Below, piece after piece: positions 6,151 through 44,530 of a stretch of DNA of 64,000 bases. Made by a program: the position numbers and the translations under genes. Below the pieces are notes generated by a model. That model ran no database searches, was not told where the DNA came from, and saw only the letters and a program-made list of their open reading frames with translations. The stretch is taken from the NCBI GenBank assembly GCA_964600755.1, contig CAZRKQ010000019.1:482-64481 (forward strand), read 5' to 3'. Source of the stretch: an uncultured Thiotrichaceae bacterium (GTDB lineage: Bacteria; Pseudomonadota; Gammaproteobacteria; SZUA-229). Within the stretch, counting starts at the first letter, position 1; each line of letters begins with the position of its first letter.

Positions 6151-6329
6151 AACGCAAAGGCGCAAAGACGCGAAGGACGCAAAGAATAATTTTTTATAGG
6201 TGTGTAAATTACATCCTGTCATCTCGACCGAAGGGAGAGATCTCGTGATGACATTGTGCTTTTGATGTCGTATCAACCAACACAACATCTGTCACCTTTG
6301 CGTCCTTCTCGTCTTTGCGCCTTTGCGTT
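6151..6329. repeat. Inverted-repeat element A of the GCAAAG-hexamer family
   Basis: Left arm AACGCAAAGGCGCAAAGACGCGAAGGACGCAAAG occupies 6151-6184. Right arm CTTTGCGTCCTTCTCGTCTTTGCGCCTTTGCGTT occupies 6296-6329. The arms are near-perfect reverse complements, and the centre contains a nested palindrome TGTCATC..GATGACA. Confidence 0.75.
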
Positions 6330-6342
6330 GAAACGAATTAAT

Positions 6343-6885
6343 CTAGTTTTCACCCCAGTCGATGGTTGAATGTGGCGGTTTCTTGCTGGACTCCGGGTTC
6401 AGATACATACTGAAGTTTCTTGTTCTCTGTGACCCGAGCAGGTATAGCGTGAGCCTGCCTTCCATTCGGTAGTTATCATTTCCAAGATTTAAATCATCAT
6501 ACAAAATACTGGTAATCCAGTAGCCCTCATGGTCAATGCGATTTGAAAGACTCGCAGCTTGATCCTGCAGCCTGGTTAGTTTATTTGTTGTTGTATTGGT
6601 CAATACCAGCCTGTTAATACCTATACGTACAACTTCCCTTGTTTTTGAGCGGTACTGGACCAGCAGTGAATCTCGCGCCTGCTGTTGTGGAACACTGATC
6701 CTCAGCTCACCTTTGTAAACCTGTATAGCAGTCGTGTCTGCAATAATTACTGGCGCAAACAACAAGCTCACACTCACCAGCAAGCCAAGTGCCGTACATT
6801 TAAGCATATTCATCCTGCGCTTCCGTATTGTGTATTGGTAAATCAAAGCAACCACTATTGTCATAGACCAGACAACAATGAACAT
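6343..6885 (-). CDS. hypothetical secreted or membrane-anchored protein
   Basis: ORF track gives 180 aa. An internal Met at 6813 begins a signal-peptide-like segment MNMLKCTALGLLVSVSLLFAPVIIA. The start ATG overlaps the stop of the upstream CCA-like gene as TAATG. Confidence 0.5.
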   Translation of the reverse strand: MFIVVWSMTIVVALIYQYTIRKRRMNMLKCTALGLLVSVSLLFAPVIIADTTAIQVYKGELRISVPQQQARDSLLVQYRSKTREVVRIGINRLVLTNTTTNKLTRLQDQAASLSNRIDHEGYWITSILYDDLNLGNDNYRMEGRLTLYLLGSQRTRNFSMYLNPESSKKPPHSTIDWGEN

Positions 6886-12555: not shown

Positions 12556-12653
12556 AACGCAAAGGCGCAAAGAGCGCTAAGTTAATGTCTTTTTTGTTCT
12601 AAATATTATTAATTTCTTTCTTTGCGTCCTCGGCGTCTTCGCGCCTTTGCGTT
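12556..12653. repeat. Inverted-repeat element B of the GCAAAG-hexamer family
   Basis: Left arm AACGCAAAGGCGCAAAG occupies 12556-12572. Right arm CTTTGCGTCCTCGGCGTCTTCGCGCCTTTGCGTT occupies 12620-12653. The centre is AT-rich. Confidence 0.7.
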
Positions 12654-12667
12654 GATACAATCTTTTT

Positions 12668-13825
12668 CTAACCACGCTGATCAATGGGCACGTAGTCGCG
12701 TGGCGAACACCCGGTGTATATCTGTGTCGGCCGGAAGATGCGATTGTCGGACAGCTGTTCCTTCCAGTGGGCCATCCAGCCGGCGATGCGCGACACGGCG
12801 AATATCGGGGTGAACTGGTCCGGCGGGATGCCCATTTCCGAGTACAGGATGCCGGAGTAGTAATCGACGTTCGGGTACACGCCCTTGGGCCCGAGGAATT
12901 CCTCGCACTGGCGTTCCAGTTCCAGCGCGGTCTCGAACATCGGGCTCAGGTTGCCTTTCTTTTCCGCCCACTCCAGCACCATCTTCTGCAGAATGATCGC
13001 GCGCGGGTCCTTGGTCTTGTACTCGCGGTGGCCCATGCCCCAGATCACTTCCTTTTCCTCCAGTTTCATCTCCAGCCAGTCCCTGACGTTTTCCGGGCGG
13101 CCGATTTCTTCCAGCATCTCCACCACGCGCTGGTTGGCGCCGCCGTGCAGCGGGCCGGCCAGGGTGCCGATCGCCGCCGCGATCACCCGGAACGGACCGG
13201 CCAGTGTCGAAGCACAGACCATGGCCGCGAAGGTGGATGCGTTGATGGTGTGCTCCGCGTGCATGATCAGGCAGGCATCCATGATACGCGCCGTCAGCGG
13301 GTCCGGTTCGAGGCCGGTGAACATGTAGATGAAATTTTCAGCGTGGGTCAGGTCACTTCGCGGCTCGATCGGGTCGTAGCCGTGGCGCACATGCTGCCAG
13401 GCGGCGACGATGGTCGCGACGCGGGCGATTATCTTCACCGACATGCTGTGGACGTAGTACTCGTCCTCTTGGCCGTAGCCCTCTGTCAGCACTTTTGAGC
13501 CCTTGTAGAACATGCCCATCGCGGCGATCGCGGTCTGCAGCATTTCCATCGGGTGACCGCTGGCAGGCAGGTTTTTCATGATCTCGCGGACATTGTACTT
13601 GAGCTTGCGCTCGCCCCGCAGCTGCTGATCGAAGTCGTCAAGTGTGGCGCTGCCGGGTAATTCACCGTCCAGCAGTAACAATGCGGTTTCTTCAAAGGTG
13701 CTTTTTTCAGCGAGTTCCTGAATGCTGTAACCACGATAGGCAAGAATGCCCTTCTCGCCATCGATTGATGAAATATTCGACTTGGTTGCAGGAACGCCGG
13801 CAAGGCCGGGTAAATATTCACTCAT
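12668..13825 (-). CDS. citrate synthase family protein, either citrate synthase or 2-methylcitrate synthase
   Basis: Length is 385 aa, with GMGHREYKTKDPRA as the catalytic His region and an overall CS-II-like sequence. No prp neighbours are present to discriminate the two functions. Confidence 0.85.
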   Translation of the reverse strand: MSEYLPGLAGVPATKSNISSIDGEKGILAYRGYSIQELAEKSTFEETALLLLDGELPGSATLDDFDQQLRGERKLKYNVREIMKNLPASGHPMEMLQTAIAAMGMFYKGSKVLTEGYGQEDEYYVHSMSVKIIARVATIVAAWQHVRHGYDPIEPRSDLTHAENFIYMFTGLEPDPLTARIMDACLIMHAEHTINASTFAAMVCASTLAGPFRVIAAAIGTLAGPLHGGANQRVVEMLEEIGRPENVRDWLEMKLEEKEVIWGMGHREYKTKDPRAIILQKMVLEWAEKKGNLSPMFETALELERQCEEFLGPKGVYPNVDYYSGILYSEMGIPPDQFTPIFAVSRIAGWMAHWKEQLSDNRIFRPTQIYTGCSPRDYVPIDQRG

Positions 13826-19626: not shown

Positions 19627-19906
19627 AACGCAAAGACGCGGGGGCGCAAAGGACACAAAGGTAATATAAGTAAGTCGTTAGTTGCTTCGACATATTGAGT
19701 GTTCTGTAGGACTGTATCAGCGAAGCGTTGCAGGCAACATTTAGACCCGGTCATTTTTAGACTGTCGAAGGGCAACGACTTACGCCTTATATCGGTCTAG
19801 ATAACTCAATAGATGGTCTACCTAACCATGAGAAGATTTCTCCCTGGTTTGAGATGACACACCACATTAATACTCTGCGCCCTTTGCGTCTTTGCGCCTT
19901 TGCGTT
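19627..19906. repeat. Inverted-repeat element C of the GCAAAG-hexamer family, with a nested inner palindrome
   Basis: Left arm AACGCAAAGACGCGGGGGCGCAAAGGACACAAAGG occupies 19627-19661. Right arm CTCTGCGCCCTTTGCGTCTTTGCGCCTTTGCGTT occupies 19874-19906. An inner inverted repeat GTAAGTCGTT...AACGACTTAC is nested inside. Confidence 0.75.
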
Positions 19907-19937: not shown

Positions 19938-20597
19938 CTAGCCGGATTGCCGGTCGAGCGGTTCGCGCAGGCGATTGAATTCGCTCGGTGCTACATATTG
20001 CAGCACTTCTTTTCCATCTTCGTTTAAGACCACATCGAGTCCTTTAGCGGCATAGAGATAATGTGTTACGCCATTGCTCTTGCGAATGATTTCATCAGCT
20101 TCGCCAAAGCGTTTAACGATAATATCGTGATCCAGATTCACCGCAGGTATACACGCGATGGAATAGATTACCGCGCCGAAAGCCTGCGCATGGTCGTCCG
20201 CGCTTAACACGTATTTCCTTGCACCTGTTTCCAGCACTTTTTTCTCAACTGCATTTTCACGCATCACATCGATGCGATCTGCATCCAGTTCAGCCGCCAG
20301 CACCAGCCTGGCAGATAACAGTCCGGCGCGATACTGGCCATAATACATTTCCAGGCTTCCCGCTTCGCCTTTGGCGACCATGACCGCAAGCTCCATGTCT
20401 TTACCGAGATGGGCAACTGCGTCAGCCAGTGTAGTCTGGCCCAATGTCACGCCAAACACCCTGGTTGAACCATCAGGCAATACTTCGATTTGCCAGGGCA
20501 ACCCGGTAACACCGCCGGTTTTCTCATCCTTGCCAATGAATGGATAGATCGCCAGAACCAGGGTAATGAGCAGAAAAGTAGGCAGAAATCTTCGCAT
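19938..20597 (-). CDS. hypothetical protein with an N-terminal TM or signal anchor
   Basis: Length is 219 aa. The N-terminus is MRRFLPTFLLITLVLAIYPF. I recognise no family for it. Confidence 0.5.
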   Translation of the reverse strand: MRRFLPTFLLITLVLAIYPFIGKDEKTGGVTGLPWQIEVLPDGSTRVFGVTLGQTTLADAVAHLGKDMELAVMVAKGEAGSLEMYYGQYRAGLLSARLVLAAELDADRIDVMRENAVEKKVLETGARKYVLSADDHAQAFGAVIYSIACIPAVNLDHDIIVKRFGEADEIIRKSNGVTHYLYAAKGLDVVLNEDGKEVLQYVAPSEFNRLREPLDRQSG

Positions 20598-21260: not shown

Positions 21261-21477
21261 CCGCAGAGGCGCAGAGAAGTTCAGGTCCGCAAATAACGCA
21301 AATGAACGCGAATGCTTAAACGGTCAGTTAACATTTCTGTAATACCTGTAGCGGCCAACTGTAGACGACTCATGCCGATTACTTACCCGTTCAAAATAAA
21401 AAAGCAGCCGGATGGCTGCTTTTATTACACAATTGACGTTTTACTTTGCGTCCTCTGCGTCTTTGCGCCTCTGCGTT
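21261..21477. repeat. Inverted-repeat element D of the GCAAAG/GCAGAG-hexamer family, containing the mrp terminator
   Basis: Left arm CCGCAGAGGCGCAGAGAAG occupies 21261-21279 and is followed by GCAAATAACGCAAATGAACGCGAATGC. Right arm CTTTGCGTCCTCTGCGTCTTTGCGCCTCTGCGTT occupies 21444-21477. An internal hairpin GCAGCCGGATGGCTGC with flanking A and T tracts lies at 21393-21428. Confidence 0.7.
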
Positions 21478-26391: not shown

Positions 26392-26549
26392 CCGCAGAGG
26401 CGCAGAGTAAGCAGAGAAAAGCTTAACTGCGTGTGATCTTATGTTTACTTAGGTTTTTAGCACCGCATAAACATGCCGTCACCGAGGACAGCTGCACAAG
26501 CACTAACTCTAAAAGCTATATTTCCTCTGCGCACTCTGCGCCTCTGCGG
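26392..26549. repeat. Inverted-repeat element E, the GCAGAG variant of the hexamer family
   Basis: Left arm CCGCAGAGGCGCAGAGTAAGCAGAG occupies 26392-26416. Right arm CCTCTGCGCACTCTGCGCCTCTGCGG occupies 26524-26549. Confidence 0.7.
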
Positions 26550-26580
26550 TTTAATAATCCCTACATTAAAGCGATGATGA

Positions 26581-26614
26581 AAAAAAGCCGCTGAGACAGC
26601 GGCCTTTTATATTT
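26581..26614 (-). terminator. bidirectional rho-independent terminator downstream of the rhodanese gene
   Basis: The sequence AAAAAAGCCGCTGAGACAGCGGCCTTTTATATTT forms a 7-bp GC stem flanked by A and T tracts. Confidence 0.6.
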
Positions 26615-26630
26615 CGGTACAGTATAGAAG

Positions 26631-27359
26631 CTATTTGCTGGCATAAGTAGACATATCAGAAGGCATCACAATTGAAAGCCCCAGTGACTGCCACATTTGC
26701 ATACCGCCTCTATAGTAATACAGCTTTTCAGCCGGATAGCCAAGACTGATCAGTGCGCGTATCGCACGAGGTGACTGGCCGCACCAGGGACCATTGCACC
26801 ACAACAGCAGCTGCCTGGCATCTGAGAAATCCCATGTGTCGGTTTTCTCCTTACCGCCGAACAGGCCGACCTTTTCCAGTGAACGCATAACAACACTCAC
26901 ATCATCACGCTGTTTCGCACCCAGGCGCTCCAGTACTTCTACCAGCTCGGGGTCATCAGCGGACATTTCAAATATCGTAAATGGAATGTTCACTGAACCC
27001 GGAATAGTGCCTTTGTTATGCCAGCTCGGGGTACGTGCATCAATAATGATGCCATTTCCATTGTGCATGGATGTTTCCATGAACTTGATGACTTCAAGCT
27101 CGGCAACTGTAGCCACACCTTCTTCTATGTTCAGTGGATTCACGCAAAACGGTGGGCATGGTCGTGATGTCTTGGTGAATGCACCATCAATGGTATTGCT
27201 GGTATTCTGGATTCTCTGAACCTTGACCAGTTCATCGCCATGATTCACCACGGTGTATGGTTTATCTTCAGTGATTTTCACTTCCAGATTGGCAGCCATG
27301 GACTGCATTGAGATAAGCGCAGCGCAGATTAACAAACTGAACAAGATAGAATTTTTCAT
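26631..27359 (-). CDS. periplasmic rhodanese-domain (sulfurtransferase-like) protein
   Basis: The signal peptide MKNSILFSLLICAALISMQSMA is followed by a rhodanese fold with the active-site region LLWCNGPWCGQSPRAIRAL. Length is 242 aa. Confidence 0.7.
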   Translation of the reverse strand: MKNSILFSLLICAALISMQSMAANLEVKITEDKPYTVVNHGDELVKVQRIQNTSNTIDGAFTKTSRPCPPFCVNPLNIEEGVATVAELEVIKFMETSMHNGNGIIIDARTPSWHNKGTIPGSVNIPFTIFEMSADDPELVEVLERLGAKQRDDVSVVMRSLEKVGLFGGKEKTDTWDFSDARQLLLWCNGPWCGQSPRAIRALISLGYPAEKLYYYRGGMQMWQSLGLSIVMPSDMSTYASK

Positions 27360-29335: not shown

Positions 29336-30142
29336 ATGCGTTTTTTACTCTCTACATTTCTTCTGGCGACTTCACTCTTGCTGTTGCAGGCCTGCAGCGT
29401 GTTCAACAAAGACCAAACCAAGAACTGGACCGCGAAAGAATTTTATGAAGAAGCAAGCAGGGCTTTGTATTCCGGCGAGTTCGAATCGGCGATCAAGAAC
29501 CTGGAAACGCTGGAAGCCCGCTTTCCGTTTGATCCCTATGCCAAGCAGGCACAGCTTGATATTGCCTACTCATATTACAAATTTGATGAACCGGATGCTG
29601 CCATCAGCGCAGCGGACCGCTTCATGCGCCTGCACCCGCGTGACCCGAATATCGACTATGTCTATTACCTGAAAGGGCTGGTGAATTTCAAACGCGGCAC
29701 CGGTATTCTGGATGGCTGGTTCCCACGGGACCAGGCCGAACATGAAACCGAAACGCTGCACAACTCTTTCAACGATTTTTCTACCCTGGTACGGCGCTAT
29801 CCAGACAGCAACTACGCCGGTGATGCTTTTCAGCGAATGATCTATCTGCGCAATGAACTTGCCCAGCACGAAATCAGTGTGGCTGAATACTACCTTTCCA
29901 GGAAGGCGTGGATGGGTGCTGCCAATCGCGCCAAAATTGTGCTTGAACGCTATGAACACTCCATCTGGCGCAAACGCGCCCTGGAAATTATGGTCATTGC
30001 CTACAATCAACTTGGACTGGTTGAACTGGCTGCCGACACTCAGCGCGTACTGGATCTCAACAAGGACGTGGCCAGCAACCTTGTCAGCTTTGATCCAAAG
30101 CTGGAAAAACCGCCAGAATCCAGCTGGTATAAATTCTGGTAG
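29336..30142 (+). CDS. bamD: outer membrane protein assembly factor BamD
   Basis: A lipoprotein signal with lipobox LLLQAC is followed by TPR-like repeats. The gene is divergent from rluD, as in E. coli. Length is 268 aa. Confidence 0.85.
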   Translation: MRFLLSTFLLATSLLLLQACSVFNKDQTKNWTAKEFYEEASRALYSGEFESAIKNLETLEARFPFDPYAKQAQLDIAYSYYKFDEPDAAISAADRFMRLHPRDPNIDYVYYLKGLVNFKRGTGILDGWFPRDQAEHETETLHNSFNDFSTLVRRYPDSNYAGDAFQRMIYLRNELAQHEISVAEYYLSRKAWMGAANRAKIVLERYEHSIWRKRALEIMVIAYNQLGLVELAADTQRVLDLNKDVASNLVSFDPKLEKPPESSWYKFW

Positions 30143-42459: not shown

Positions 42460-43245
42460 TTGAACGAGCCTCACGTGACCGACTACCTAACATACGAACA
42501 ACCGCTTAACGAACGAATTCGCACGTTCTTCAGGCTCGAAAAACTGTTCAAACAGTTTGCTTTCCATATTAAGCACGGATCAGCATGGGACAACCCCATC
42601 GCAATTGATGCGATTACAGATATCCTGTCATTTACTACTCGAAGCGATATCAAACTTGAAGTACTCAAAGAGCTTGAGCGACAACATTCGCGCCTGGAAA
42701 GACTTACAAAACGCCCACAAATTGACCAGGGTCAACTGACAGCTTTACTGGATCAACAGACGGTATTGATCGGTAGATTGAAATCAACCACAGGGCAGTT
42801 AGGCCAGGAAACCCAGGGCGCTGAACTTTTAAATGCCGTTCGACAAAAAAACTCGGTACCGGGTCCGATCTGTGATTTCGATTTACCGGCGTTCCACTTC
42901 TGGCTGACACGTTCAGAAGATACGCGGCGCGAACATCTGCAGCAATGGTTTGCGCCCTTTATAGTGCTTGAAGAAGCCATCACCATGATCCTGGACGTTT
43001 TAAGAAACTCTGCTGACGACAGCGAAGAAACTGCAGCCAAGGGTTTCTTTCAGAAAGTAATTGATACAAACCAGGCTGTTCAACTGGTGCACATATCGGT
43101 ACCGGTGACGCTGAACTGCTATCCCGAAATAAGCGCAGGAAAACACCGCTTCTCGGTTCGATTTATGCTTAATCCAAATCCGTATACCCGCCCTGAACAG
43201 TGTACCGAAGACGTGGCATTCAGGCTTAGAATCTGCTCTGTCTAG
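42460..43245 (+). CDS. zapD: cell division protein ZapD
   Basis: The N-terminus YEQPLNERIRTFFRLEKLFKQ resembles E. coli ZapD, which begins FEHPLNEKMRTWLRIEFL. Length is 261 aa. Position after coaE is conserved. Confidence 0.8.
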   Translation: MNEPHVTDYLTYEQPLNERIRTFFRLEKLFKQFAFHIKHGSAWDNPIAIDAITDILSFTTRSDIKLEVLKELERQHSRLERLTKRPQIDQGQLTALLDQQTVLIGRLKSTTGQLGQETQGAELLNAVRQKNSVPGPICDFDLPAFHFWLTRSEDTRREHLQQWFAPFIVLEEAITMILDVLRNSADDSEETAAKGFFQKVIDTNQAVQLVHISVPVTLNCYPEISAGKHRFSVRFMLNPNPYTRPEQCTEDVAFRLRICSV

Positions 43246-43296: not shown

Positions 43297-43554
43297 GTCC
43301 ACAGATGAACGCAGATAAACACAGATACTTTTATTGTCCGCAAATAAACGCAAATAAACGCAAATAATTTTTATGTTACTCCAGTACAGGCAGTAGGCCA
43401 GTGTCTCAGGTATAAGCCGCAACAGAGATCAATCGTCCGCGAAAAACGCAAACAAAAACATATCTAGATGGTTTAGTGCTTTTCGCGCCATTCGCGTTTC
43501 TGGCGGACAAATAACGTACTCAATATCTGTGTTGATCTGCGTTCATCTGTGGAC
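43297..43554. repeat. MITE-like element F with roughly 32-bp terminal inverted repeats and internal 10-bp tandem repeats
   Basis: GTCCACAGATGAACGCAGAT at 43297-43316 is the exact reverse complement of ATCTGCGTTCATCTGTGGAC at 43535-43554. The match extends imperfectly to about 32 bp. Inside are three tandem ACGCAAATAA repeats and further nested inverted repeats, TTGTCCGC with GCGGACAA. Confidence 0.7.
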
Positions 43555-43582: not shown

Positions 43583-44530
43583 TCACTTCCACAAAGCACC
43601 TATTGCAGCTATACCCTGCCCACCCGAACGCCACGCCTGCTCAATATCATCAGCTGACACCCCTCCGAGTGCATATACCGGTATATTGATATTATCAACC
43701 ATATCGTGGAAAGCCTCCCACCCCAGAGGTTGAATACCTGGATGGCTGCGTGTTTTCTGTACCGGTGACAGCACAGCAAAGTCAACACCAATAGACTGTG
43801 CATGCTCAAGTTCCTGCCTGTTATGGCAAGAAGCAGCTACAAGATCACTATCTGGCCTGCTATTAATTTTGAGTAATTGCCTGCTGTTTAAATGAATACC
43901 TTCATTTGTTATCGACCTGAGCTGTTCAGGTAAATTAAACAAAAGCTTCGCGGAATTCTGTTTACACAGGCTTGTGCAGAGCTCAATAACTTCGAGTGCA
44001 TACGCCTCGGTGTTGGCTTGCAACCAGGCGTGCGTCAGGCGCAACTGTACCAGCTCAATACCGCCGTGCAATGCTGCTGACAGTCTTTTTTCAAAATCAG
44101 TCACACTGAAAAACTCCCCGGTTACCAGGTAGCGCCCTGGTAATAATAATGCGTTGATTATCGGTATATCCGCTGGAGGAAACACATTTTGATCAAGCCC
44201 ATCAACTGCACGCCATTCTATGCGCTGACCTTCAACACCTCTGGGACTCCCCGAAAAGGACTCGATTTTCCATACATCAAGCAATACAGATTTTTCAGGA
44301 TAATGATACCTGGCCCTGATAAGCGGCCGGCTTGATGTCGGAACGATATCAAGCTCCTCCTTCAACTCACGGGATAATGCAGCTGTAACACGTTCTCCCG
44401 GCTCCAGTTTGCCGCCTGGAAATTCCCAGTAACCACCAAGGTGGGTGCCCTGCTTTCTCTGACTGACAAGAACCTCAGCCTTGTTGTTTACAACAGCTGC
44501 AACTGCAACGTGAATGAATGCGTTATTCAC
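43583..44530 (-). CDS. Nudix (MutT-like 8-oxo-dGTP diphosphatase) fused to a thiamine-phosphate-synthase-like domain
   Basis: The N-terminal Nudix box is GGKLEPGERVTAALSRELKEELDI. The C-terminal half is ThiE-like, with GVDFAVLSPV and ALGGV. Length is 315 aa, matching the Pseudomonas MutT/ThiE-type fusion. Confidence 0.75.
   Translation of the reverse strand: MNNAFIHVAVAAVVNNKAEVLVSQRKQGTHLGGYWEFPGGKLEPGERVTAALSRELKEELDIVPTSSRPLIRARYHYPEKSVLLDVWKIESFSGSPRGVEGQRIEWRAVDGLDQNVFPPADIPIINALLLPGRYLVTGEFFSVTDFEKRLSAALHGGIELVQLRLTHAWLQANTEAYALEVIELCTSLCKQNSAKLLFNLPEQLRSITNEGIHLNSRQLLKINSRPDSDLVAASCHNRQELEHAQSIGVDFAVLSPVQKTRSHPGIQPLGWEAFHDMVDNINIPVYALGGVSADDIEQAWRSGGQGIAAIGALWK

Follow-up and report, generated by a model that had tools for sequence, protein, structure and literature searches.

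Octamer-array hairpins in a gammaproteobacterium-like chromosome as candidate gene-less copies of GxxExxY nuclease cassettes

What are the long hairpins that recur behind stop codons in the chromosome of an uncultured gammaproteobacterium-like organism, and where do they come from? The stretch of DNA analyzed here, 64 kb in length and termed the window, had been predicted from its sequence to hold five inverted-repeat elements (A to E) with arms of short periodic units, a family that was not recognized at the time. Direct reading of the sequence places all five where they had been located and confirms that they form a real and dense family of repeats, long hairpins composed of periodic units. 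What the original prediction overlooked is that these arms also flank a nuclease gene, in a cassette which occurs across phyla. On balance, elements A to E are likely to be “solo” copies, devoid of a gene, of the octamer-array arms which elsewhere surround a gene of the GxxExxY/PDDEXK_3 nuclease family, and a sixth element, F, is probably a gene-less shell of such a cassette as well.

Arms shared by the hairpins and a nuclease gene cassette

The arms in the window and the arms of the cassettes belong to one sequence family. The terminal 19-mer of the window elements, GTCTTTGCGCCTTTGCGTT, has six matches in the window at ≤3 mismatches, as opposed to 0.03 expected, and none of 100 shuffled sequences reached six. 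An exact search for this 19-mer in one genome per species, from which all copy numbers are lower bounds, located it in more than 10 phyla, with at least 119 stretches of species-representative genomes carrying it. Four of the loci selected in this way (L045, L060, L053, and L027) include a gene that lies between the arms or abuts them. In L045, the left arm is followed by 11 nt, an ATG start codon, 125 codons, a TGA stop codon, 3 nt and the right arm. The other three are organized analogously, L053 with arms of CACAGAG units, L027 with an internal stop in the gene and L060 with a truncated copy ahead of a full one that a GC-rich insert breaks up. The encoded protein matches TIGR04256 (E = 2e-41) and the Pfam family PDDEXK_3 (PF13366; E = 2e-40). 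Among compact elements, approximately three of 78 enclose a gene.

To control for selection bias, GxxExxY loci were also sampled by protein similarity alone, and the association between gene and arrays holds in this sample, chosen without reference to arrays. Inverted arrays stand on both sides of the gene in seven of seven distinct chromosomal or metagenomic loci (L216, L221, L227, L230, L228, L229, and L233), which comprise rpe|gph, three trpE|trpG lineages, a Pyrinomonadaceae metagenome-assembled genome (MAG), DHH|CobA and a sugar-nucleotide operon; here, the arrays lie 0–18 nt before the start codon and 2–22 nt after the stop codon. Eight plasmid loci are more varied. Arrays flank the gene on both sides in two of them, and in a third, located between fabD and fabG, a left array abuts the ATG. 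A fourth is followed closely downstream by a complete gene-less hairpin, a fifth has a plain inverted repeat, and the remaining three have short-unit repeats of another or an unclear kind. Short-unit arrays that differ in sequence, ACAAATCGGGACAAATCGAACAAATAG, precede some distant GxxExxY genes (L213, a Prevotella plasmid, at 480–560 and 1000–1100; L214; L215), and the gene of L214 lies between direct, not inverted, repeats (CAGATTTAATCCGTGTACCTAT). The architecture of the flanks thus varies within the protein family.

The cassettes reside inside host operons, and both neighbors are co-directional at every annotated locus. The junction of trpE and trpG (anthranilate synthase I/II) is occupied in L045, L060, L221–L227, and L230, that of rpe and gph in L216–L220, and further GxxExxY genes are found between housekeeping genes of conserved operons, namely fabD|fabG on a Sphingomonas plasmid (L211), radA and the gene of an FAD protein (L209), and ade|manC (L210). 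The only Shine-Dalgarno-like sequence of the cassettes is the last purine-rich array unit, so pairing of the arms would hide the ribosome-binding site. Furthermore, the unit subtype follows the protein subfamily: CGCAAAG occurs with a gammaproteobacterial clade of ≥60% identity, CGCAGAG with P0223, CGCCGAG with P0235, CGCGAAG with L211, and CACAGAG with P0204, L053, L209, and L210; relative to the CGCAAAG clade, the carriers of the other subtypes are more remote members of the family.

The kinship of the window arms with the cassette arms is also evident from an nhmmer profile that was built only from 10 arms of five cassettes. It detects elements A (E = 1.6e-13 and 2.9e-11 for the two arms), B (2e-8 and 4.2e-7), C (2.9e-10 and 5.8e-8), and the right arm of D (1.7e-8), thus spanning E-values of 1.6e-13 to 4.2e-7. 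Element E and the left arm of D, both of the CGCAGAG subtype, give weak matches (E = 0.08–0.6; 0.13 for the left arm of D), and the profile has no other match in the 64 kb. The CGCAGAG subtype in turn flanks GxxExxY genes in L229 and L208. Since no GxxExxY open reading frame (ORF) lies between the window arms, the window copies are gene-less derivatives and not full cassettes.

The PD-(D/E)XK catalytic motif of the encoded protein is complete, and the protein has a minimal nuclease fold akin to that of Cas4. Alignments reveal the full motif as invariant G-x-x-E-x-x-Y, D67 and E77-x-K79, and the fold is seen in an AlphaFold2 model with a pLDDT of 94.2. The closest structural match of this model is Cas4 (4ic1, score 11.0), followed by a second Cas4 structure (4r5q, 9.7), the nuclease domain of BpuSI (8.5), a restriction-endonuclease-like protein (3ijm, 8.3) and the Holliday-junction resolvase Hjc (1gef, 6.7), while a sequence search of the PDB with the protein profile returned no match. 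The family comprises 34,558 cluster representatives at 50% identity (E up to 1e-3). Many of the top representatives (P0241–P0255) are approximately 270–295 amino acids long and contain two full GxxExxY domains, as a result of either genuine tandem fusion or gene calls that read through from one cassette into its neighbor. The function of GxxExxY/PDDEXK_3 has been given as unknown, and multiple transfers of the family between bacterial divisions and archaea have been described (Steczkiewicz, 2012; PMC3424549). The literature search found no paper that ties the protein to flanking repeats.

Anatomy of the elements in the window and across phyla

The window is unremarkable chromosome with recognizable genes such as glnS, anmK, citrate synthase, a histidinol-phosphatase-like gene, dcd, apbC, and the gene of a PleD-like regulator. 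The arms of its elements consist of two to four tandem CGCAAAG/CGCAGAG units plus one or two purines, at a spacing of 8–9 nt (Table 1). Left arms had been described as having three or four units, which does not hold throughout, as B and D show two clear units. Placement right after stop codons stands as predicted, with gaps of 0–31 nt for A to D and 70–81 nt for E. Each element yields one long hairpin whichever strand is folded (z –3.7 to –12.5 relative to mononucleotide shuffles), with minimum free energies of –91.9 for A (z –10.5) and –94.9 for F (z –11.1). In a repeat-finder analysis, the right arms of A to D form a four-copy family of 49 nt with 71–84% identity, and the six longest local inverted repeats of the 64 kb are A, F, E, C, an unrelated element at 30146–30317, and B.

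Table 1. Octamer-array elements of the window (arm complementarity of A, B, C and E from the repeat finder; ORF, open reading frame).
Element	Position	Strand	Arms	Arm complementarity	Centre	Neighboring genes
A	6151–6329	none	left arm 6151–6184, AACGCAAAGGCGCAAAGACGCGAAGGACGCAAAG, 4 units; right arm 6296–6329	38 nt, 95%	111 nt, small nested palindrome inside	stops of glnS (6127, +) and ORF 6343–6885 (–)
B	12556–12653	none	compact form, 98 nt; left arm 2 clear units; right arm CTTTGCGTCCTCGGCGTCTTCGCGCCTTTGCGTT	20 nt, 95%		citrate synthase stop (12668, –), 14 nt from element end
C	19627–19906	none	34-nt arms	76% over 34 nt	212 nt	convergent: histidinol-phosphatase-like gene (stop 19606, +), ORF 19938–20597 (–)
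D	21261–21477	none	left arm ACCGCAGAGGCGCAGAG, 2 units; right arm CTTTGCGTCCTCTGCGTCTTTGCGCCTCTGCGTT, abuts apbC stop	weaker left arm: ~17/20 positions match reverse complement of right arm	nested GTCCGCAAAT-type half-array ~21287–21316; apbC intrinsic terminator ~21393–21423 (–)	tandem: apbC, then dcd
E	26392–26549	none	GCAGAG subtype; ACCGCAGAGGCGCAGAGTAAGCAGAG and CTCTGCGCACTCTGCGCCTCTGCGGT	30 nt, 90%		convergent: PleD-like gene (stop 26321, +), rhodanese-like ORF 26631–27359 (–), whose terminator ~26580–26612 lies outside the element
F	43297–43554	none	sister element; GTCCACAGATGAACGCAGATAAACACAGATA; CACAGAT/CGCAGAT units	31 nt, 97%	nested GTCCGCAAAT- and GTCCGCGAAA-type arrays	convergent: ORF 42460–43245 (+), ORF 43583–44530 (–)

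Element F shares the architecture of A to E and was absent from the original list. Its nested arrays, GTCCGCAAATAAACGCAAATAAACGCAAAT and GTCCGCGAAAAACGCAAAC with the right-hand partner TTTTCGCGCCATTCGCGTTTCTGGCGGAC, look like elements inserted within elements. Nested GCAAAT-type half-arrays are held by both D and F, and the GTCCGCAAAT type also occurs at the C and E sites of related strains. The small palindrome in the centre of element A (CATCCTGTCATCTCGACCGAAGGGAGAGATCTCGTGATGAC, window 6205–6260) resembles the inner palindrome CATCCTGAGCGAAGTCGAAGGATC...GATCTTTCGACTTCGCTCAGGATG of a GCAGAG-armed element in L122 (2140–2230) and may be another dispersed unit.

Beyond the window, the matches listed for the 19-mer include Acidobacteriota, Verrucomicrobiota, Chlamydiota, Chloroflexota, Myxococcota (Sorangium and Minicystis), Desulfuromonadales/Geomonas, Planctomycetota, Poribacteria, KSB1, and Ectothiorhodospiraceae/Thioalkalivibrio, as well as one archaeal carrier, a Methanosarcinales MAG; nearly all of them share one anatomy. 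Statistics on 78–79 compact elements from the at least 119 loci and the window give a median length of 107 nt (range 52–449), and two to four units per arm, spaced by 8 nt (282 cases) or 9 nt (29 cases). The commonest units are CGCAAAG (362), CGCGAAG (38), and CGCAGAG (34). Between the arms, 82% of positions form Watson-Crick pairs, and the 231 purine-purine differences divide into 112 mismatches of the G.T type and 119 of the A.C type. The purine/pyrimidine pattern is thus kept where pairing is lost, which fits a constraint on the sequence and not on RNA pairing alone. Selection on an RNA of one direction was rejected, as the two mismatch types are equally frequent and reveal no strand asymmetry. 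The inverted repeat often extends, in variable sequence, past the conserved arrays: flank position 2 is complementary in 56% of cases compared with 34% in controls, and positions 5–10 in approximately 42% compared with approximately 30%.

The median distance to a stop codon is 19 nt. The location between convergent genes that had been put forward holds for A, C, E, and F in the window (D being tandem) and fails as a rule for the family. By crude ORF calling, which puts eleven elements, most of them from GC-rich genomes, “inside” ORF predictions, the 54 copies of other genomes that could be classified lie in 31 tandem, 14 convergent and nine divergent gaps, and the background comprises 408 tandem, 126 convergent and 115 divergent gaps. 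The convergent bias of the window is therefore local, and a general preference for convergent genes was rejected (14/54 vs. 126/649).

Several known classes of element were considered and discarded. The view that the elements are not simple repetitive extragenic palindromes (REPs) is borne out by arms that begin with AACGC or ACCGC and lack a GTAG head. Intrinsic terminators do not apply, as no T-run follows the right arm of any of A to E and true terminators are separate (inside D and beside E). Integron attC sites were set aside because the copies are dispersed among housekeeping genes, the ORF, if any, lies inside the hairpin, and the element ends read GCGTT[A/G/T]AA and not GTTRRRY. A CRISPR reading is ruled out on anatomy. 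A linked transposase is not apparent, since the ORF clusters of the at least 119 listed loci are generic families (ABC ATPases, kinases) with no transposase near the elements, apart from one small cluster within long elements, which is that of the GxxExxY gene. Phages are no obvious vector: the 19-mer occurs in two of 2.9 million viral contigs, where no GxxExxY relatives were found. No Rfam family matches the elements; at the gathering threshold the sole match in the window is a tRNA gene (16–88, –), and element A gives noise only when E-values up to 10 are admitted.

The 30146–30317 element is a different inverted repeat of approximately 172 bp with perfect 20-nt arms (GCCTGCATATTGCACGAAGG), which fills the stop-to-stop gap between a yfiO-like gene (29336–30142, +) and nadE (30317–31936, –). 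In the related strains L203 and L206 the site is empty and the stops of both genes abut (TAG|CCTA); in L205 and L207 the outer repeat of this element carries nested octamer-array elements.

The GCAAAG family and its CACAGAG sister are catalogued in Geobacter but unexplained. Array strings retrieved no relevant full-text paper, and the family came to light in a supplementary table alone, where Geobacter bemidjiensis is listed with “Octanucleotide repeats YTT[TCTTTGCG]3TGAGG” (Gbem_R8001-R8034) and “Nonanucleotide repeats TTT[WCCTCTGTG..]nGTGAG,” neither with a function (Aklujkar, 2010; BMC Genomics 11:490, Table S6; PMC2996986). The nonanucleotide repeats are relatives of the GCAGAG/CACAGAG type. 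The expectation that the elements match no family already described thus fails in part, the family being on record though uncharacterized. A like arrangement with different unit sequences is known from G. metallireducens, where paired “global regulator binding sites” on opposite strands and at variable distance, each of three to five tandem repeats of 7–9 nt, were guessed to bind IHF/HU (Aklujkar, 2009; BMC Microbiol 9:109; PMC2700814). The units of G. bemidjiensis are the same as those described here: TCTTTGCG is the reverse complement of CGCAAAGA, and CCTCTGTG that of the sister unit CACAGAGG. The Geobacter arrays likewise comprise three or four tandem units, usually as two opposite-strand arrays per intergenic region at variable distance, and the right arms of A to D read CTTTGCGNCTTTGCGNCTTTGCG, with one pair per gap. 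The outer flank differs, being TGAGG in Geobacter and TTGAA, TTGAT or TTAAT in the window (GCGTTGAAA, GCGTTGATA, GCGTTAATC, GCGTTGATT); Geomonas L021 has the TGAGG type (GCGTTGAGG), which indicates lineage variation in the flank. The Geobacter papers report no link to a gene, no distribution across phyla and no strain polymorphism.

Turnover among close relatives

Among close strains, whole elements are gained and lost, arm subtypes are exchanged and centres are replaced. Syntenic contigs of relatives were retrieved through ApbC homologues, with ApbC identities of 99% for L203 and L204, 97% for L205 and L207, 96% for L206 and 88–89% for L121 and L122. The E site is empty in L206 and L207, has a different fill in L205 and holds a CACAGAG-armed element with an unrelated centre in L203. 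At the C site, orthologous arms are present in L203, L204, L205, and L207, each with a different centre, and the site is empty in L206, where both neighboring genes overlap. The D site contains an element in five relatives and its internal apbC terminator is conserved; in L203 both arms consist of CACAGAG units, where the window has CGCAGAG/CGCAAAG. L203 and L205 have an orthologous element at the B site, where L206 is free of arrays. In L121 (ApbC 89%), no array is found in 21 kb, compared with five in the homologous stretch of the window, and apbC is directly followed by the terminator alone. An origin of the CGC-to-CAC arm switches by methylation or deamination was considered and provisionally set aside, since CACAGAG arms have a GxxExxY subfamily of their own. 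Empty and filled sites, arm switches and replaced centres indicate that the elements are gained, lost, converted and invaded at the pace of strain divergence.

The centres also house nested palindromic elements of other kinds. In relatives, the C and E sites contain GTAG-headed palindromes of classical appearance (GTAGGGCGGATTAGG...CCTAATCCGCCCTAC) together with GGTGCAATAGCG[A/T]AGCGTATTGCACC units, at 12700–12800 in L203, at 12950–13100 in L207 and at about 6000–6250 in L205. GTAG-headed units thus occur as separate nested elements, which suggests that the hairpin loops serve a second, REP-like repeat family as landing sites.

Competing explanations and comparable systems

A full cassette consists of a left array, 0–18 nt, a start codon, approximately 125 codons, a stop codon, 2–22 nt and a right array, and lies within host operons, co-directional with both neighbors. 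The gene-less form comprises only the arms and a short or unrelated centre, folds as a hairpin of 20–40 bp (a DNA cruciform or an RNA stem) and lodges a few to a few tens of nt after stop codons. It is tentatively proposed that the nuclease mobilizes the hairpins: it might act in trans on the arrays, its target being either the tandem units or the hairpin or cruciform once extruded, and this action would create or convert copies. The hairpins would then relate to the cassette as REPs and their hairpin-forming doublets (REPINs) do to the REP-associated tyrosine transposase (RAYT), or as a miniature inverted-repeat transposable element (MITE) does to its parent, and those in the window would be largely neutral passengers whose only routine effect may be a strong stem-loop in the 3' untranslated region. 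A wider proposal, to be held slightly more loosely still, is that GxxExxY/PDDEXK_3 proteins are the trans-acting nucleases of a previously unrecognized, phyla-crossing class of prokaryotic mobile elements. Such an element would be a minimal PD-(D/E)XK gene inside a hairpin made up of tandem octamers; gene-less GCAAAG, GCAGAG, CACAGAG and related hairpins would fill intergenic regions like REPINs for RAYTs, and recognition of hairpin, cruciform or tandem units by the nuclease could lead to copying, arm conversion and loop replacement.

A number of observations speak against this account. Neither a GxxExxY gene nor a remnant of one was detected by tblastn or six-frame profile search in the window and approximately 1 Mb of relatives' loci (L121–L207). 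Element D switched both arm subtypes and kept its centre, unlike a simple cut-and-paste unit. Neither a consistent target-site duplication nor a clear insertion junction emerged; of 77 elements, 21 have identical flanks at 2 nt, one at 3 nt and four at 4 nt, and the flanks of empty and filled sites are too diverged to fix insertion boundaries. The trpE|trpG cassette proteins of several gammaproteobacterial lineages are only 58–68% identical, which at one shared operon junction points to an old, vertically kept insertion; these cassettes are old and vertically inherited, which leaves present-day nuclease activity unproven. Finally, the gene could have invaded pre-existing hairpins, since the centres accept many other inserts.

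This last point leads to the alternative that survives best, although it is rather unlikely: causality may be reversed, with independent hairpins that are moved otherwise or kept by the host, into whose centres free-standing, homing-endonuclease-like GxxExxY genes insert, the arms serving them as a safe site or as repair homology. PD-(D/E)XK homing endonucleases exist, and the cassettes are always co-directional in operons, like free-standing homing endonuclease genes. Unrelated inserts concentrate in the centres (REP-like GTAGGGCGGATTA units, other arrays, a terminator), and gene-less copies far outnumber gene-bearing ones. Arms at every sampled chromosomal GxxExxY gene, with tight spacing to start and stop codons, and the dependence of the cassette on its last array unit for a Shine-Dalgarno-like sequence are at odds with this alternative, and the co-variation of unit subtype and protein subfamily suggests a long cognate relationship over opportunistic lodging.

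Somewhat less probable again is a REP-like RNA element that serves the host, its 3' stems blocking exonucleases or acting as RNase III sites that uncouple transcripts. Strong stems on both strands, the short distance to stop codons and the retention of D at one place in five relatives would suit such a role, as would the RNase III cleavage of the stem-plus-ORF intervening sequences (IVSs) of 23S rRNA (PMC4990558). Very close relatives nevertheless have empty sites with no substitute structure, and the near-equal G.T and A.C mismatch counts bear no sign of selection for RNA pairing in the transcribed direction. Moreover, no U-tract follows the arms, separate true terminators lie inside D and beside E, and no Rfam family matches.

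It is very unlikely that each gene-less hairpin is a former cassette which lost its ORF by deletion and never moved. Decayed cassettes do exist, as the internal stop of L027 and the truncated and insert-bearing copies of L060 illustrate, and the centres are heterogeneous. Six-frame profile searches (E up to 1) of the centres in the window and in relatives, however, revealed no trace of an ORF, the median element is just 107 nt long with a short AT-rich loop, and the sampled cassettes are co-directional in operons, while the window copies lie mostly in convergent gaps.

An operator-like duplex array for a nucleoid protein or global regulator, as envisaged for IHF/HU (Aklujkar, 2009) and in the original prediction, is highly improbable: the periodic units, their conserved purine/pyrimidine pattern and the Geobacter counterparts, where insertion sequences lie at a fixed distance from the proposed IHF/HU sites (PMC2700814), are outweighed by the speculative nature of that proposal, an 8-nt period unlike the helical repeat, a position downstream of genes and not at promoters (9/54 copies in divergent gaps), gain and loss between strains too fast for a regulon, and an exact 19-mer in more than 10 phyla that would demand an equally conserved regulator. 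A regulator- or protein-binding array was a plausible thought as such, and it may be correct with the cassette's own nuclease as the binding protein.

With the gene-less-copy reading retained, four known systems invite comparison. REPs, bacterial interspersed mosaic elements (BIMEs) and REPINs with their RAYT (TnpA-REP), a pairing said to be called the “REPtron,” were reportedly described by Nunvar in 2010, Bertels and Rainey in 2011 and Ton-Hoang in 2012. Both systems have many gene-less hairpins in 3' intergenic regions, a small nuclease-type gene bracketed by inverted copies of the repeats, and copies that are nested, clustered and turn over between strains. They differ in the enzyme, a PD-(D/E)XK nuclease here as opposed to an HUH/Y1 transposase, in the window arms, which lack a GTAG or CGTC head and consist of tandem 8-nt units instead of a single imperfect palindrome, in the presence of the GxxExxY gene at several loci per lineage (rpe|gph, trpE|trpG) where RAYT is single copy, and in the span of one octamer sequence family over many phyla.

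By analogy, the nearest architectural precedent is the 23S rRNA IVS of Coxiella, Leptospira and Salmonella, with terminal inverted repeats, a stem of approximately 28 bp and a small ORF in the loop, whose role in mobility is a proposal (PMC4990558). Besides the stem and the ORF, insertion at the tip of a pre-existing hairpin and a sporadic, horizontally transferred distribution are shared. In contrast, the IVS sits in rRNA helices, encodes an S23p/four-helix-bundle protein instead of GxxExxY, and its stems are not tandem octamers.

MITEs and the Foldback elements of eukaryotes are likewise non-autonomous with terminal inverted repeats and variable centres, and the arms of Foldback elements are also built of short tandem repeats. 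For the present elements, neither a DDE transposase parent among the ORF clusters of the at least 119 loci nor a consistent target-site duplication was found, and their inverted repeat often runs on beyond the conserved arrays. Elhai and colleagues are said to have reported in 2008 small dispersed repeats (SDRs) of Nostoc, very small hairpin repeats that nest. These resemble the present elements in mutual nesting and in presence/absence differences between close relatives, and differ in sequence and in their restriction to cyanobacteria; to our knowledge, no gene is associated with them.

For genome analysis, the hairpins break assemblies, mark strain-level variation and create spurious small ORFs (QRKGAKTQR/FAPLRLCAF-type peptides). 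For the protein family, the association provides the orphan GxxExxY/PDDEXK_3 proteins with a testable role and would offer an origin for repeats that have been catalogued in Geobacter genomes since 2009–2010; it would also explain how one 19-mer comes to be identical across many bacterial phyla and an archaeon. If the nuclease mobilizes the hairpins, the system would constitute a second, mechanistically different counterpart of REP/RAYT, and it might also bear on the intervening sequences of 23S rRNA.

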